A stretch of 64,000 bases of DNA from an uncultured Veillonellaceae bacterium. Its GTDB lineage: Bacteria > Bacillota > Negativicutes > JARBTT01. This document shows, in pieces, positions 22,560-37,630 of this stretch (its first letter is position 1; each line of letters starts with the position of its first letter). Both the position numbers and the translations under genes were made by a program. The notes below the pieces were generated by a model. It was not told where the DNA came from. It saw nothing but the letters and a program-made list of their open reading frames with translations, and did not search any database. The stretch spans positions 128,001 through 192,000 of the forward strand of contig CAWDTA010000001.1 of the NCBI GenBank assembly GCA_963805085.1. The letters are read 5' to 3'.

Positions 22560-22694
22560 CTGTCGCTTAATGAAATAATATTCCAAGTGATTTACCTATA
22601 GATAAAACGAATATCATAAATTCGATATATGAATTTTACGAATATGTATATTTCTTGTATAATTTGAACATAAAGGAATCCGTATTTTACATTT
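22560..22694 (+). repeat. Promoter module copy 1 (shared with region upstream of cfa)
   Basis: Aligns with 36163-36309, e.g. cgatatatgaattttacgaat and tatttcttgtataat(t/c)tgaacataaaggaatccgt(a/g)ttttacattt. Confidence 0.9.
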
Positions 22695-31796: not shown

Positions 31797-32680
31797 GATA
31801 GGTTTTGTAATGTTAATGTGGCTTTGCAGAAATCAATGAAGGATTGTGCTGCTCTAGAAATATAACGATCTTTTTTCCAAGCGAGCCCGATATCAACAAA
31901 GATAGGTTCTGTTAGTGGCAAAGTTTTAATATTTGGTGTATCGTGTACGATAACATCAAGGAGAAATGCAGCGCCAACATCTGATGCAACCAAGCCTTTG
32001 ATGGTTTCAATTTGATTTGACTCTAAGACGATATTAGGATCAATATTTGCAGTTTTTAATTTCTGTAATACTAAATTACGTAGATAAGAGCCTTCTTTTA
32101 ACATAATCAAATCAATTTCTGATAAATCAGAAATCGCAAGCGAAGACTTCTCAGCAAGCGGACTTTGTAGTGGTACACAAGCTAAAATTTGATTTGTTGA
32201 CATAGGCAATAATTGTAAATTTTGTGAAGCTCCTGAAATAATAACGATACCAAAATCCAATTCATCGCGTTCTAGCTGTTCGCGAATCGCCATAGAACCT
32301 TCCTCATATAGATAGATATCTAAGTGTGAATAACGGCGTTGGAAGCTTGAAAATATTTTTGGAAATAAATAAGCACCAATCATAGAAGGAATACCAATTT
32401 TAATAGTACCTTTCTGTAATTGCTTGTAATCATTTACTTCTATTACAGCATCTTGGATATTGCGCAATGCGAGTTCAATACGATTTAAGAACACTGCTCC
32501 CTCTGGTGTTAAGGATAGCTGCTTTTGACTACGGTCAAATAGTTGAATGCCAAGTTCGGCCTCAAGCTTTTTTACAGCAACGGTAATATTTGGTTGAGAT
32601 ACACGTAGCCTTTCTGCAGCACGTGTAATGTTTTTTAAGCGGCTAGCCATTTGAAAATATTCTAATTGTCGTAATTCCAT
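31790..32680 (-). CDS. LysR-family transcriptional regulator
   Basis: MELRQLEYF..NITRAAERLRVSQP..LEAELG..LFDR. Confidence 0.93.
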   Translation of the reverse strand: MELRQLEYFQMASRLKNITRAAERLRVSQPNITVAVKKLEAELGIQLFDRSQKQLSLTPEGAVFLNRIELALRNIQDAVIEVNDYKQLQKGTIKIGIPSMIGAYLFPKIFSSFQRRYSHLDIYLYEEGSMAIREQLERDELDFGIVIISGASQNLQLLPMSTNQILACVPLQSPLAEKSSLAISDLSEIDLIMLKEGSYLRNLVLQKLKTANIDPNIVLESNQIETIKGLVASDVGAAFLLDVIVHDTPNIKTLPLTEPIFVDIGLAWKKDRYISRAAQSFIDFCKATLTLQNLSK

Positions 32681-33001
32681 CTTTTCTCTCCATTATCTAT
32701 TGTCATTTATAGTATATAATAACCCATGATTATTTAAGTATTATTATATCATATTTTAAACCAATATTATTAAATGATATTGGTTTAATTTGCATAAAAA
32801 TATTAAAAAAGTGTAAAACAATATAATAATATATAATATTATCATAAATTATTATAATAAGCCACTATTTTTATAATATTGTGTAATTTATGATAAGTAT
32901 AAAATTTTTACGGTTTTGTTTATACTACGTTTTATGCCTAGTTTCTTATATTTTTTATTTAGAAAAGCTAATATAATATTGTTTGATTAATTGTTGCTAG
33001 A

Positions 33002-33030
33002 GTATAAAAAAATAAGATCAGTACATACTA
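33002..33030 (+). promoter_or_regulatory. Putative sigmaG (forespore) promoter
   Basis: GTATA-N17-CATACTA upstream of the SASP-like gene. Confidence 0.55.
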
Positions 33031-33070
33031 TGAATGGCAATCTAAAATCAACGATTGGAGGCGACTGTGT

Positions 33071-33172
33071 ATGGCAAAGGTTATGTCAGAAAAAATGAAA
33101 TATCAGTTAGCAAACGATTTAGGTTTTGGTGATAAAGTTGCCGATCATGATTGGTCTGATGTTACTGTATAA
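33071..33172 (+). pseudogene. 5' half of an interrupted small acid-soluble spore protein (SspF/alpha-beta-type) gene
   Basis: MAKVMSEKMKYQLANDLGFGDKVADHDWSDVT(V*), paralogous to 33255-33458; SD GGAGG; homology stops exactly at the 17-bp repeat. Confidence 0.85.
33150..33166 (+). repeat. attL core direct repeat
   Basis: ATTGGTCTGATGTTACT. Confidence 0.88.
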
Positions 33173-33254
33173 CCTTTTTATAAATGAATAGCATGTGACA
33201 TAACAGTAAATAATATACGTAGGCTTCTAAAATCAATGATGGAGGTGGCTGTAT

Positions 33255-33458
33255 ATGGGAAAAGTTATGTCGGAAGAAACGAAATATAAATTAGCTCATG
33301 ATCTTGGATTTGGTGAGAAGGTCGAAGACGGAAATTGGGACGACGTTACGACGGGCGAAATAGGTTCTATGGTTAGAGAAGCTATAAAGCGTGGTAGCGA
33401 AGCAGTTGAAAAAGAAACACAAATCGAAAGTGGTTTAGCTCATCAAAATATTAAATAA
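33255..33458 (+). CDS. Small acid-soluble spore protein, SspF/alpha-beta-type-like (intact copy inside the element)
   Basis: KYKLAHDLGF..V..GNW..VTTGEIGSMVREAI; SD GGAGGTG; terminator at 33461-33505. Confidence 0.78.
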   Translation: MGKVMSEETKYKLAHDLGFGEKVEDGNWDDVTTGEIGSMVREAIKRGSEAVEKETQIESGLAHQNIK

Positions 33459-33634
33459 ATAATAAATGACCTGAAATTCATAACTGGATTTCAGGTCATT
33501 TATTGCATAATATGGCATGGTTGTCATGTTTTCTAAGGTATCATCTGTATTAAGCAAATATGTCACTGGTGGTATCTATTTTAAGTTTACATTTAGATAA
33601 TTACCAAAACTTAATTAGGTGCTTTGGTAATTAA

Positions 33635-33737
33635 TCTCTTTTTAAAATCAACTCTAGACCAAGAAAGTGCTTAGGCTGGGAATCGCCTATTTAAGTATTT
33701 TTACTCGAAGTGGCGCACGTGGCTTGACGATTCATCA
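33635..33737 (+). mobile_element. IS30-family transposase 3'-end remnant
   Basis: Translates SLFKINSRPRKCLGWESPI*VFLLEVAHVA*, matching the IS30 C-terminal NxRPRKxLGxxxP motif, with an internal stop. Confidence 0.75.
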
Positions 33738-33777
33738 TCTTTTTGAGGTCGTTATAAAATGTATAAAAATTGACACT

Positions 33778-34662
33778 TTATGAAGTTTTGTAAATTTGCT
33801 TAGTAATTTCAATGAACCCTTTTATTTCATTCCTTTCATTGCTCTTATGCCATGCAATTCCATAAGAAATTAAATTTCTTACATCCAGGGGAATGATGGA
33901 TAGTTGAGAATCTTCTGGACATACAAAGTTTGGCATCACCGCTATGCCCAGTCTTCCTTTAATCATGGTATAAGCGATGAAGGAACTGTCACCAAAATAA
34001 ACAGTGGCATTAGGACATTTTATTTGGATATCTTTTTGTACACGCGCCATTTCAGAGGGACATTTTAAAGGGTCTAGTAGAATAAGGGACTGATCCTTCA
34101 ATTCAGCCATTTTAATAACAGTTTTGCTAGATAATGGATGGTCTTTAGGTGCCACACAGACAAATCTTCCAATAAAAAGTTCTGCGTAACCAACCTCTGA
34201 TAAATCTTCAATACTTTCTTTGACAGTAAAAATCAAATCGAAATTATAATTTGTAAATAGATTTCTTTTTTCCTTAGAATCAGCTATTTTTAAATAAAAA
34301 TGTACGTGAGGAAATCTTTCCCTGCAGGCATCTAATATGTTTGGAAGGTATTTTACCTCGATATTTCCGTCATAACAAACTGATAAATTAGATTCAAATG
34401 CCTTAGAGTAGTTTTTGGCCTTTGCTATTGCTATGTTTGTTCTTGTTAGAATATCTTTTATATCATTATAGAAGGAAACGCCTGCTGGAGTAAGGTCCAC
34501 TTTTCTCTTTGTTCTAATAAATAATTTTAATTTAAGTTCATCTTCCAGAGTATTAATCTGATGGGTAACAGTAGGTTGAGTGATATATAAAGATTCTGCA
34601 GTTCTAGAAAAATTAAGAGTTTCAGCTAGATGAACAAAACATCCGAGTTGTTTAATATGCAT
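33778..34662 (-). CDS. LysR-family transcriptional regulator (element cargo)
   Basis: MHIKQL..F..LAETLNFSRTAESLYITQP..LEDEL; ATG 34662 after AGGAG. Confidence 0.92.
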   Translation of the reverse strand: MHIKQLGCFVHLAETLNFSRTAESLYITQPTVTHQINTLEDELKLKLFIRTKRKVDLTPAGVSFYNDIKDILTRTNIAIAKAKNYSKAFESNLSVCYDGNIEVKYLPNILDACRERFPHVHFYLKIADSKEKRNLFTNYNFDLIFTVKESIEDLSEVGYAELFIGRFVCVAPKDHPLSSKTVIKMAELKDQSLILLDPLKCPSEMARVQKDIQIKCPNATVYFGDSSFIAYTMIKGRLGIAVMPNFVCPEDSQLSIIPLDVRNLISYGIAWHKSNERNEIKGFIEITKQIYKTS

Positions 34663-34859
34663 GTTGACTATTCTCCTGTACTTATAGAAATTATTTATTA
34701 ATAATAACATATTTCAATTTCCGTTCCAAACAGAAAAGCGTTAAGATTAGTAATAAATAAAGGGAAAGTTATTATTTGCTAGAAGGGTTTAAACCCAATT
34801 AATAACTTATTGTATTATTTGTTTATAGCTTTAATAAAAAATAGGCAGGAGGGAAAAAT

Positions 34860-35819
34860 ATGAGATATATTGTTACAGGAGCAGATGGGCAATTAGGTGG
34901 AAGAGTAGCAGCTAACCTACTGAATGAAGTATCTGGAGAACAATTAATTTTTACATGTCCCGTTTTAAATCGGTTATCAAAAGAGAAGGCAGAGGCTTGG
35001 AAAAAACAAAGTGTTGCATTGAGAGAAGCAAACTATGATAACAAGGAGCAAATGACAAAAGCCTTTAAAGGTGGTGATCGTATTTATATTGTATCTGGTG
35101 TAATAATTGGACCAGAACGTGTACAGCAACATAAAAATGTAATTGATGCTGCTATTGCAGCTGGGGTAAGCCATATTACATACACATCATTCTTAGGTGC
35201 TAATCGTGAAGGGTACACTCAATATGTATTACCAGATCATACGGAAACAGAAAAATATTTACGAGAGACTGGCGTAAATTATAATATTATGAGAAATAAC
35301 CTTTATATGGAAAACTACTTAACTAATTCTGTTATGCTAGCTAACATAAGCGACAACAAGTGGGTAACTACAGCAAGTGATGGAAAAGCAACATTTATTG
35401 CAAAAGATGATAGTGGTCGTGTTGCTGCTGCATTATTATTAGGTAAAGGAGAGCATAATAAGGATTATGATGTAACAGGTGGAGAATTGATCAGCCAGCG
35501 TGAAATCTGTAAGATGATTATTGAAGCATCAGGTATTGATTATGAATATGTGATAGTTAATAATGATGAATTTTATAAGTATTTGGATTCAATATATATT
35601 CCTCGTGATTCACATGGAGATTACTCAAAATCACCTGTTCCATGGTGTAGTAATGACATGGTAACTAATGAATCAAGTATTAGAGATGGTTTAATGGCAA
35701 TTAAAACAGATACAGTTGAAAAATTGACAGGTAGAAAACCATTGCGCGTTTGTGACCTAATAGATAAATATAGCTATGTATGGAAAGAAAAAGTAAGTAG
35801 CTATTGGGAATTAAGATAA
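34860..35819 (+). CDS. NmrA/QOR2-like atypical SDR NAD(P)H-binding oxidoreductase (element cargo)
   Basis: VTGADGQLG, QHKNVIDAAIAAGVSHITYTS, H..TE; divergent from the LysR gene. Confidence 0.87.
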   Translation: MRYIVTGADGQLGGRVAANLLNEVSGEQLIFTCPVLNRLSKEKAEAWKKQSVALREANYDNKEQMTKAFKGGDRIYIVSGVIIGPERVQQHKNVIDAAIAAGVSHITYTSFLGANREGYTQYVLPDHTETEKYLRETGVNYNIMRNNLYMENYLTNSVMLANISDNKWVTTASDGKATFIAKDDSGRVAAALLLGKGEHNKDYDVTGGELISQREICKMIIEASGIDYEYVIVNNDEFYKYLDSIYIPRDSHGDYSKSPVPWCSNDMVTNESSIRDGLMAIKTDTVEKLTGRKPLRVCDLIDKYSYVWKEKVSSYWELR

Positions 35820-35875
35820 ATCACAACACGCATGATCTACTTGGTATGTTCAAAAAGGTTATTCAGAAACATCTC

Positions 35876-35943
35876 ATTGGTCTGATGTTACTACAGGGGA
35901 AATTGGATCAATGGTATGTCGAATCAATATACAAAATAAATGA
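35876..35943 (+). pseudogene. attR repeat plus 3' half of the interrupted SASP-like gene
   Basis: WSDVTTGEIGSMVCRINIQNK*, matching WDDVTTGEIGSMV of the intact paralog; followed by terminator 35946-35988. Confidence 0.8.
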
Positions 35944-36162
35944 ACAAAAATAGCCCCAAAGTTATAAATGAACTTTGGGGCTATTTTTATAGATAAAGAC
36001 TGAGAACAACTTCGCTTTAAATATTATATTAAATAACTTAAGTGAAAAGTGTCTATTTATGTAAATGAAATAATAATGCTAATAGTTAAATGTGGTAATT
36101 ATTAGTAGAATGATCGGAAGAAATAGCGTATTCGTGGTAGTAAAACGGTTGAAACATTGTGC

Positions 36163-36309
36163 CTGTCGCTTGATTACTTTTTTGAAAGAAAATATTCTAA
36201 GTGATTTTAACTATAGACGAAACGAATACCAAACATGCGATATATGAATTTTACGAATGCGTTTATTTCTTGTATAATCTGAACATAAAGGAATCCGTGT
36301 TTTACATTT
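36163..36309 (+). repeat. Promoter module copy 2 (shared with region upstream of lutC)
   Basis: Near-identical to 22560-22694. Confidence 0.9.
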
Positions 36310-36433
36310 TGCACATTATTGGCGATATTATTGTAATAATGATTAATGAAAGTGGCGATACGGTTCTTTTATCTATGATTTTAGTCATACATAAACTAAT
36401 TTTTATACTTGTTATTTGTAGCAATGGAGAGGA

Positions 36434-37630
36434 ATGATAGCAATGTTAACAAAAATGGCTTTAAAACTAGCCTTAAAACAGTGGAAAAAAGGTGGATTTT
36501 CTGTGGCTTTTTGGGATGGAGAGGAAGAAAACTATGGTGAGGCTCCTCCGTCTTTCAAGATAATTTTTCATAAAGAACCTCCCTTAAAACTTAATAGTGC
36601 AGACATGATTTTAGCTATCGGGGAAGCTTATATGAATGGACTTGTCGACTTCGAAGGATCAATGGATGATATTATGCATGTAGTTGCGCTTAATACCAAG
36701 CCAGAGCGATCGCAAAAGTATAGTCACTTTGTAGGCGATAGGGCCAACTGTAAAATTCAGAAGGAAAATATCCATCGTCATTATGATTTAGGAAATGACT
36801 TCTTTTCGCTTTGGCTGGACAAGACAATGAGTTATTCCTGCGCGTATTTTAAGACACCAGAGGATTCCTTGGAACAGGCGCAATTGCAAAAAATTGATCA
36901 TATTCTTAAAAAACTGAATCTTAAGCCTGGTGAAAGATTATTAGATATTGGCTGTGGCTGGGGCTGGCTGATTATCAGGGCTGCACAGCAGTATAATGTG
37001 AAAGCTACCGGAATTACATTGAGTACCGAACAATTTGCCGCAGTAACAGAACGGATAAAGAAATTAGGTTTGGAAGATCAATTGGAAGTTAAATTGATTA
37101 ACTATCAGGAACTTGATTCTGCGAAACTGCAATTTGATAAAATTGTAAGCGTAGGTATGTTTGAACATGTAGGAAAGGGAAACTTGGGCTGTTATATGAA
37201 TAAGGTTAACGAGCTTTTGGTGCCCGGTGGCATATCCTTGCTGCATAGCATTACTGGCATGTTTGAAGATTCTGCCAATACATGGATGGAAAGGTATATT
37301 TTCCCTGAAGGTTATGCGCCATCATTGCGTGAAACAGTTTGGCTATTGCCGCAATATGATTTTCATCTAATACATGCGGAAAGTTTACGTATGCATTATG
37401 CGAGGACTTTGGATTATTGGTACGTTAATTTTTCCAAACAGTTAGATACGGTTCGCCACATGTTTGATGAATGCTTCATTCGTATGTGGTCACTCTATTT
37501 ACAAGGCTGCGCTGCTGCCTTTCGGACATCGGGCCTTGATGTCTATCAACTGCTCTTCACCAAAGGGTTAAATAATGAACTGCCGCTAACTAATGCCCAC
37601 ATGTACAGTGAATACACGAAAAGGCAGTAG
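36434..37630 (+). CDS. cfa: Cyclopropane-fatty-acyl-phospholipid synthase family methyltransferase
   Basis: HYDLGNDFF.LWLD.TMSYSCAYF, LDIGCGWG, SVGMFEHVG, HYARTL. Confidence 0.92.
   Translation: MIAMLTKMALKLALKQWKKGGFSVAFWDGEEENYGEAPPSFKIIFHKEPPLKLNSADMILAIGEAYMNGLVDFEGSMDDIMHVVALNTKPERSQKYSHFVGDRANCKIQKENIHRHYDLGNDFFSLWLDKTMSYSCAYFKTPEDSLEQAQLQKIDHILKKLNLKPGERLLDIGCGWGWLIIRAAQQYNVKATGITLSTEQFAAVTERIKKLGLEDQLEVKLINYQELDSAKLQFDKIVSVGMFEHVGKGNLGCYMNKVNELLVPGGISLLHSITGMFEDSANTWMERYIFPEGYAPSLRETVWLLPQYDFHLIHAESLRMHYARTLDYWYVNFSKQLDTVRHMFDECFIRMWSLYLQGCAAAFRTSGLDVYQLLFTKGLNNELPLTNAHMYSEYTKRQ

Follow-up and report, generated by a model that had tools for sequence, protein, structure and literature searches.

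A spore gene in a 64,000-nt stretch of the genome of an uncultured Veillonellaceae bacterium (hereafter the window; the assembly that holds it, G000, is 4.2 Mb in 5 contigs and is 83% complete) is interrupted by an insert that we read as a mobile gene cassette. The interrupted gene, gene A, is a resident sspF-like gene for a small acid-soluble spore protein (SASP), and the insert at positions 33155-35875 carries a full-length gene of the same kind, gene B, together with two cargo genes. On our reading, to which we give a probability of about 0.72, the insert is a non-autonomous, site-specific integrative gene cassette moved by an enzyme supplied in trans, in the manner of an integron cassette. 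A circular cassette would recombine with its target at a short core through a conservative site-specific recombinase provided from elsewhere, and any two sites having the arm and the core in common could recombine, which would make the whole an integron-like system. An earlier note on this DNA, made from the letters of the window alone, had described the insert as a skin-like, decayed element that either had lost its integrase or is mobilised in trans. The features of the split gene and the insert, with attL and attR for the left and right attachment junctions, are:

33071..33172, plus strand: 5' fragment of gene A, resident and sspF-like; 33 codons, ended by a stop that the insert creates
33150..33166, plus strand: left copy of the 17-mer, attL side; its first 5 bases, ATTGG (33150-33154), are the putative recombination core
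33155..33179, plus strand: right arm (armR, P'), TCTGATGTTACTGTATAACCTTTTT, at the left end of the insert
33255..33458, plus strand: gene B, full-length and sspF-like, for a putative alpha/beta-type SASP of 67 aa, borne by the insert, with its own ribosome-binding site
33778..34710, minus strand: cargo LysR-family regulator (HTH_1 and LysR_substrate)
34860..35819, plus strand: cargo NmrA-like NAD(P)-binding protein (NmrA, E 3.4e-22)
35852..35875, plus strand: left arm (armL, P), AAAAAGGTTATTCAGAAACATC followed by TC, at the right-hand end of the insert; this end is conserved in all cassettes of the family
35876..35892, plus strand: right copy of the 17-mer, attR side, with the core ATTGG at 35876-35880
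35876..35943, plus strand: 3' remnant of gene A, with a 61-bp frameshifting deletion relative to the sister genome G001

The 17-mer ATTGGTCTGATGTTACT was present in exact copies at 33150-33166 and 35876-35892 with no third copy in the window; when up to 3 mismatches were allowed 0.25 matches were expected, and 2 of 100 shuffles attained 2 matches. The open reading frame (ORF) that begins at 33071 ends at a stop codon (33170-33172) three bases past the first copy, and in-silico removal of the 2726 bp between the repeats yielded a frame of 48 aa. The 22-bp arms at 33158-33179 (minus sense) and 35852-35873 were inverted-identical at 20 of 22 positions, or at 21 of 25 on extension to TTGG, and at 3 mismatches or fewer the 4.2-Mb assembly held these two arm copies only. 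The earlier note had reported the repeat pair, the stop, the frame obtained by deletion, the arms and a promoter motif at 33002-33030; the first three were reproduced exactly, the arm identity agreed on recomputation and the motif was present in the sequence.

The empty site was found in G001, the genus's one other genome, where an uninterrupted 67-aa gene lies between the same LysR and cyclopropane-fatty-acid-synthase genes, bearing out the earlier claim of an insertion into a forespore SASP-type gene. An intact A-type gene was also found in G004, which belongs to another family. Alignment with G001 covered window positions 32700-33166 at 92.5% identity, ended on the last base of the first 17-mer and restarted, with window positions 35876-35916, at the first base of the second, the overlap being exactly the 17-mer. 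Counted by eye, 3 of 96 bases of the 5' fragment differ from the G001 gene, and the fragment is native as far as the junction. Since the flanks of both junctions in G000 are native A-type sequence, the insertion was new and precise, and homologous import of a ready-made junction was ruled out on the same ground. The 3' piece in G000 is without 61 bp between two CAATGGTA repeats, a loss that puts the rest out of frame and takes away the conserved REAIKRG motif, and excision would thus not rebuild gene A. The proposal that deletion restores one frame held for the 48-aa frame and failed for the intact gene, which has 67 aa in the G001 orthologue. Both the 61-bp deletion and gene B had been missed by the earlier note. 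Gene B is the sole intact copy of the split gene in G000; it would have taken over the function of gene A, leaving the remnants of A free to decay, as in the 61-bp deletion, and the G000 copy would now be fixed.

Neither small protein of G000, A or B, attained threshold in Pfam and NCBIfam. Gene A of G001 matched PF00269 at E 5.9e-4 and 20.2 bits (cut-off 22) and gene B gave no match; the best named relative of protein B, in a search of a plasmid collection, was B. subtilis sspF with 48.8% identity over 41 aa. There was a weak match to the canonical SASP of G000, and no other member of the sspF-like subfamily was found in G000. As judged from these comparisons, the split-gene family is probably a divergent, sspF-like group of alpha/beta-type SASP. 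At the DNA level gene B was 72% identical to gene A of G001 versus 80-81% to genes of other families. Of 20 distinct full-length sspF-like genes in other genomes, 8 are preceded by a homologous right arm. The segment from LysR through NmrA to the arm was 95.6% identical over 2066 bp to the metagenome contig L066, where the arm abuts a different sspF remnant, and was found at about 95-97% in contigs of four public sequencing runs, in other contexts and never with the flanks of G000. No run matched more than a quarter of the sequence words, and no RNA data set was listed among those with matches. By these identities the insert is foreign DNA.

We searched for further copies in 401 genomes of the class, a species collection (genome_contigs), viral contigs and metagenome contigs. 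Arm matches were kept at up to 2 mismatches; at 3 a reversed control pattern also matched, and such matches were therefore ignored. The arm was found in 13 of the 401 genomes, and the exact pattern occurred at 9 loci of the species-genome collection, in records that without exception carry the name Pelosinus or Sporomusa, and at 18 loci in metagenome contigs. The arm+core pattern had 0 matches in viral contigs, protein B had no match in a phage collection and distant SASP genes only in the plasmid collection, and no phage or plasmid carrier was found in these searches.

All fetched DNA from other genomes and metagenomes held 35 distinct sites in which the arm is followed by the core. Thirty-one continue in frame into an sspF 3' fragment and 1 more into an internally deleted fragment; 2 lead into sequence starting TGCC, and 1, in G104 (L044), leads into a right arm as an uninterrupted palindrome. 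The sequence shared by 32 of the 35 is AAAGGTTAT-N6-ACATCTCA-TTGG directly abutting the sspF-like 3' fragment, so that the arm reads into TCATTGG and then into the 3' part of the gene (...HW SDVTTGEVGSMVREAIKRG...). These sites agree with the supposition in the earlier note of an element family targeting one gene, and G104 has, as one contiguous sequence, the palindrome reconstructed there. By its junctions, the insert belongs to a cassette family that targets the sspF-like gene at the same codon.

A six-frame search with protein B found an sspF-like gene in 66 of the 401 genomes, and 23 of these 66 (G000 and 22 of the 65 others) also had 3' fragments. They span 8 families, the 22 other genomes belonging to f6, f13, f16, f25, f26, f27 and f32. 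Fragments of the 5' part were limited to G000, G048, G078 and G164. A second complete element, in G048, consists of a 5' fragment, CTGG, a right arm, a full gene, HD/AzlD/cupin cargo, a left arm, CTGG and an intact 3' fragment, and in-silico joining of its gene halves would restore the full frame. In G040 (L006 219-300) the last ~20 sspF-like codons lie 1.1 kb downstream of an intact gene with no recognisable arm; since such an old remnant has outlasted its arm, boundaries appear to decay past detection by the arm pattern, and the family counts are lower bounds.

Where several boundaries occur together they form arrays with a common plan: an intact gene comes first, and behind it units made up of a 3' gene fragment, cargo and an arm recur in one orientation. 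The array in G220 has one full gene and remnants 2.5, 12.5, 26 and 32 kb downstream (at least 4 over 32 kb), and arrays in other genomes have two or three remnants. From arm to arm the units measure 0.9 to 13.6 kb, and they hold 1 to more than 8 genes on both strands with their own regulators. In outline, a cassette combines a regulator with an enzyme or a transporter. The cargo includes AraC with glyoxalases, MarR with a hydrolase, an MFS transporter with PadR, TetR with a two-component system and an ABC exporter, TPR proteins, cupins, parts of toxin-antitoxin systems and ORFs of unknown function. A unit of arm, remnant, ArsR gene and 550-aa gene was 88.9% identical over 2657 bp between G098 (f6) and G220 (f25); the ArsR-unit proteins of the two genomes were 92% identical and their upstream neighbours were unlike. 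At DNA identities of 89-96%, cassettes are exchanged between families. The ArsR-linked protein itself (543-553 aa; L035 4325-5983, L056 11380-13008) has one N-terminal hydrophobic stretch and no Pfam family.

One cassette was found in a second target. In G068 a DUF255 gene (YyaL-like, with a thioredoxin domain) runs as far as ...GYSTCHW, where its frame passes into an sspF remnant (L037 8560-10300); 1.3 kb further on come a left arm, TCATTGG and the remaining DUF255 motif (CHV...). A unit of sspF remnant, one ORF and arm thus entered DUF255 at CAT TGG | TGC CAT GT, without a right arm, a promoter or the 5' part. This case indicates that what stays constant in cis is the left arm with the core, placed at the 3' end of each cassette, and that the right half (NGC-NATGT) is supplied by whatever follows, which is the logic of an integron array and not of a phage-type attP/attB pair. 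The two TGCC junctions, and a decayed third in G220, resemble DUF255 right halves by their TGCCNTGT start, and the G068 junction alone among them was confirmed. Two further observations concern this target. The left arm in frame reads K-G-Y-S-E-T-S-H-W, like the DUF255 motif V-G-Y-S-T-C-H-W, and the DUF255 gene of G048 (L092 16300-16520) has a 40-bp, stop-containing insert just before the motif that includes GATGTTACT and may be a footprint.

The flanking 4-mer was equal on both sides in all three complete elements, TTGG in G000 and G078 and CTGG in G048, and the insertion point in gene A is the (A)TTGG of a tryptophan codon. In G078 and G048 the attL and attR junctions have only ATTGG or ACTGG in common and nothing beyond, which puts the functional core at (A)YTGG, 4-5 bp, in place of the 17-mer. 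The 17-bp identity in G000 is, as judged from these junctions, largely a coincidence between similar half-sites. The site as a whole consists of an outer block AAAGGTTAT, about 6 variable bases, an inner block ACATCTCA, the core and a right half NGCNATGT, and its reconstruction gives imperfect inverted arms of 22-25 bp around an asymmetric 4-bp centre. Most copies have TG(A/T)... and ...(T/A/C)CA as their ends; the left end starts with TC in G000 and with TA in G048.

The locus has further features that are predicted from the sequence:

33002..33030, plus strand: promoter-like motif of gene A, GTATA-17 nt-CATACTA, also conserved in G001
33186..33215, plus strand: promoter-like motif of gene B, GAATA-17-18 nt-AATAATA, in a region conserved upstream of homologues
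33455..33510, no strand assigned: hairpin after gene B, probably a terminator, an inverted repeat found by reading and not called by the terminator scan
33628..33739, no strand assigned: 110-nt non-coding block, 79-86% identical to DNA of four other genomes, with no Rfam family
35944..35990, no strand assigned: terminator hairpin of the resident gene, called by the terminator scan and conserved in G001

The motif at 33002-33030 fits the sigma-G consensus and may be a promoter of that type, and the gene B motif was likewise judged against the consensus. An Rfam scan of 32500-36600 gave weak hairpin-type matches only. Homologues of the 110-nt block were found in G015 (twice, one at a contig end), G006, G019 and G034, and in G015 an FtsA/PilM-like ORF follows closely after the block. 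The cyclopropane-fatty-acid-synthase gene is preceded by a repeat of about 105 nt (36191-36298), whose second copy, at 22577-22683, is 13.6 kb away and 88% identical; both copies occur in G001 too.

To look for an enzyme we scanned the insert and the related cassettes. Gene B, LysR and NmrA, plus a 65-aa frame that runs antisense inside NmrA, make up all ORFs of at least 60 aa in the insert; neither the ORF list nor Pfam gave a recombinase gene there, in line with the earlier note, and Pfam found none within any scanned cassette (208 ORFs, some outside cassettes). Recombinase- or transposase-type Pfam matches were an IS21 interrupting one cassette, IS256-type transposase genes or fragments, one rve_2 remnant with a tyrosine-integrase remnant, and one TniQ. 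The family looks, from these scans, to be recombinase-less by design, and the earlier idea of an element that had decayed and lost its integrase did not hold up, as no integrase-bearing member occurred among the cassettes examined. Several hiding places were considered and rejected. Twenty large cassette ORFs without a Pfam family (131-636 aa) had no mutual similarity, and no recombinase lay within 8-18 kb of orphan 3' fragments distant from any full gene at 6 loci, where these might have been the ends of large autonomous elements. The serine recombinase (501 aa) encoded 11 kb before the G048 element is part of a separate defence island (contig 25, L092 2700-16050), together with a tyrosine-integrase fragment, SIR2-HerA and an ABC-three-component defence system. 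Neither of the 400-aa phage-type integrases that G000 encodes had consistent orthologues. For mimicry of Xer/dif, no second site with the inner motif was found in G000, nor was the host dif site located. No tyrosine recombinase was seen beside the arrays of G000, G078, G098, G104 and G220 among the scanned ORFs, a scan that included no dedicated IntI search.

The best surviving alternative, the mechanism put forward in the earlier note and one that we consider unlikely, is that the ends are attP/attB sites of a large serine recombinase encoded elsewhere, with crossover at the central TG. The site would suit such an enzyme, being about 50 bp long with imperfect inverted arms round a non-palindromic centre and inner and outer blocks about 6 variable bases apart, and a search for large serine recombinases, which the earlier note had proposed, found two in G000 along with the two phage-type integrases. 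One of them lies in a 2.7-kb skin-like element that splits sigK (contig 5, L046 6894-10400; shared core TAATGAA), with one or two small ORFs beside it. This recombinase has 60-64% identity to counterparts in G078, G098, G104 and G220 and 96% to that of G001, and is the only such enzyme common to these genomes and G000; it adjoins the sigK 5' half in G001, G078, G098 and G220. The sigK-element site has the size and symmetry of the cassette site, with arms around TGAA, but its conserved arm motifs are different (ACAGATAA / TTATCTGT, in 4 genomes), and a role for this recombinase as the cassette enzyme is not supported by the sequences. The second enzyme (518 aa, contig 2, L045 6876-8432) is 81% identical to a protein in G104 and was rejected as the common enzyme, since its identity is only 25-29% in G098, G078 and G220. 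It stands beside an AAA_15/AbiEii-like ATPase, and the 81% identity to G104, a genome of another family, suggests recent transfer. G078, which is 100% complete and has one attL and two attR junctions, encodes only the sigK-type serine recombinase, and no such enzyme was found in or beside any cassette. Canonical large serine recombinases pair attP only with attB. For a cassette with no right arm to enter DUF255, an attR-type site must have recombined with the target, and attR-type junctions are far more numerous than attL-type junctions; both count against this account.

We regard as quite improbable a non-autonomous DDE transposon, a 'mobile insertion cassette' moved by a transposase acting in trans. 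Such an element would have terminal inverted repeats of 25 bp (5'-TGA...TCA-3'), would duplicate 4 bp of its target and would strongly prefer a target resembling its own end. The equal 4-mer in 3 of 3 complete elements would be the duplication and tracks the target codon (TTGG versus CTGG), a pattern that is indistinguishable from a shared recombination core. The TG and CA termini of most copies fit a transposon, the arm-4 bp-arm junction in G104 resembles abutted transposon ends, and the target right half AGCGATGT is similar to the left end TGAGATGT. However, no insertion sequence with matching ends was found in the 401 genomes, genome_contigs, viral or metagenome scans, and the left ends of G000 and G048 are TC and TA, not TG. 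The right end stands alone in most array units, the DUF255 cassette is without the left repeat, and the transposases near arrays (IS21 and IS256-type) have other ends or are separate insertions. Among a serine recombinase, a tyrosine recombinase and a DDE transposase, the anatomy favours conservative site-specific recombination.

A developmental switch of the skin type, excised in sporulation to rebuild the spore gene, is in our judgement very improbable. A sporulation gene is interrupted, as it is by skin, SPbeta and gin, and the G048 halves are intact and join in silico into a full frame. In G000, however, the 3' half is frameshifted and a complete replacement gene has been brought along, and the skin-like label of the earlier note was abandoned, excision being neither restorative nor needed. 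The insert holds no recombinase or directionality factor, and the promoter motif of the target is forespore-type (sigma-G-like), in which compartment excision would pass to the germ line. That no mobile element is involved, the locus having arisen by tandem duplication of a SASP gene with an unrelated insertion and decay or by homologous import of a segment, is scarcely credible: two related copies do adjoin each other (at 33071 and 33255) and their ribosome-binding regions are similar, but the sister genome G001 has a single intact gene, gene B is nearer to genes of other families than to gene A, the precise junctions fall at a codon common to dozens of independent arm-bearing junctions, and the native flanks exclude homologous import. 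The earlier note had tied duplication and decay to relatives that lack the joined gene and to a palindrome never found beside a recombinase; the joined gene is present in relatives, which speaks against duplication and decay, and the palindrome indeed never lay beside a recombinase.

Several points weigh against the reading of the insert as a trans-mobilized, integron-like cassette. With no recombinase linked to the sites, the mechanism is read from anatomy alone, and G000 is only 83% complete, so that the enzyme could lie in the missing part. No free circle or recent excision was seen, in runs that were represented by assembled contigs and are blind to rare forms. Uninterrupted arm-core-arm sites amount to the one in G104 and one decayed site in G098, both chromosomal. 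The 12 attL bases after the core are identical to the host gene in G000, which neither model predicts and which we ascribe to the similarity of the half-sites. Fragments of the 5' part are also rare, occurring in 4 genomes versus 23 with 3' fragments, and nested insertion followed by deletion of tandem 5' stacks could yield the same imbalance. Given that alternative, the integron-like array reading leans mainly on the single DUF255 case.

A broader proposal, which we hold tentatively and a little short of even odds, is that spore-forming Negativicutes have a gene-capture platform anchored in sspF, in which arm-ended cassettes are inserted, stacked, shuffled and passed between families by an enzyme that is not linked to them and whose site, CATTGG-NGC-NATGT, also opens other genes, DUF255 among them. 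The enzyme of such a platform would be either a repurposed host recombinase or an unrecognised one. If true, this would be a second independent solution to gene capture beside integrons, one that differs in site and anchor and has no integrase linked to it. To bring along an entire substitute for the gene that it disrupts is an unusual way for a mobile element to neutralise its own cost, and many 'truncated SASP' pseudogenes in these genomes are cassette boundaries. With about 35 natural junctions, a defined site of about 45 bp and arrays in a cultured Sporomusa (complete genome) and a Pelosinus isolate, the recombinase can be sought, and an enzyme that reads a short core beside one long arm could serve for site-specific integration. 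Searches of the literature (full text; subscription journals were not covered) returned the intervening elements skin, SPbeta and gin, papers on integrons and the concept of cis-mobilizable elements, and no description of cassettes in Negativicutes or in genes for SASP.

Among the gene-intervening elements of sporulation genes, skin lies in sigK, SPbeta in spsM and gin in gerE (PMC5595907). The cassette resembles them as a foreign element inside the frame of a sporulation gene with a short repeated core and inverted arms, and resembles gin in not being a prophage. These elements have their own serine recombinase and directionality factor, and their excision in the mother cell restores the gene, whereas the G000 cassette encodes neither of the two. 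It also differs from them in its replacement gene, the forespore-type promoter motif of its target, the arrays formed by its family and the decay of its target. The cassettes are like cis-mobilizable elements (CIMEs) in being bounded by att sites, in having no recombination module, in tandem accretion at one target and in an enzyme that presumably comes from elsewhere. Recombinase-less pseudo-SCC (staphylococcal cassette chromosome) elements in staphylococcal composite islands are likewise att-bounded, tandem and presumably moved with help from an enzyme encoded elsewhere. CIMEs and pseudo-SCC elements derive from easily found integrase-bearing relatives at the same site, whereas no autonomous relative of the sspF cassettes was found in our searches. 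The Xer-dependent dif modules of Acinetobacter plasmids and MIC231 of Bacillus cereus are small recombinase-less modules with short conserved sites that depend on a host or trans-acting enzyme; the sspF site is not dif-like in layout, and no insertion sequence has ends that match it. Integron cassettes are recombinase-less, have a conserved terminal site, stack in a single orientation by a fixed gene and are shared between taxa. The sspF cassettes likewise end in a conserved site, stack in one orientation and are shuffled between taxa, and their cargo is similar (glyoxalases, acetyltransferases, parts of toxin-antitoxin systems). The sspF site, however, is a half-palindrome completed by the next unit and not a folded attC, and mostly promoterless single genes under a common promoter give way to units of 1 to more than 8 genes, with regulators, on both strands. 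The anchor of the sspF cassettes is inside a coding sequence. To our knowledge integrons are essentially confined to Gram-negative lineages, whereas the hosts of the sspF cassettes are Firmicutes-type spore formers.

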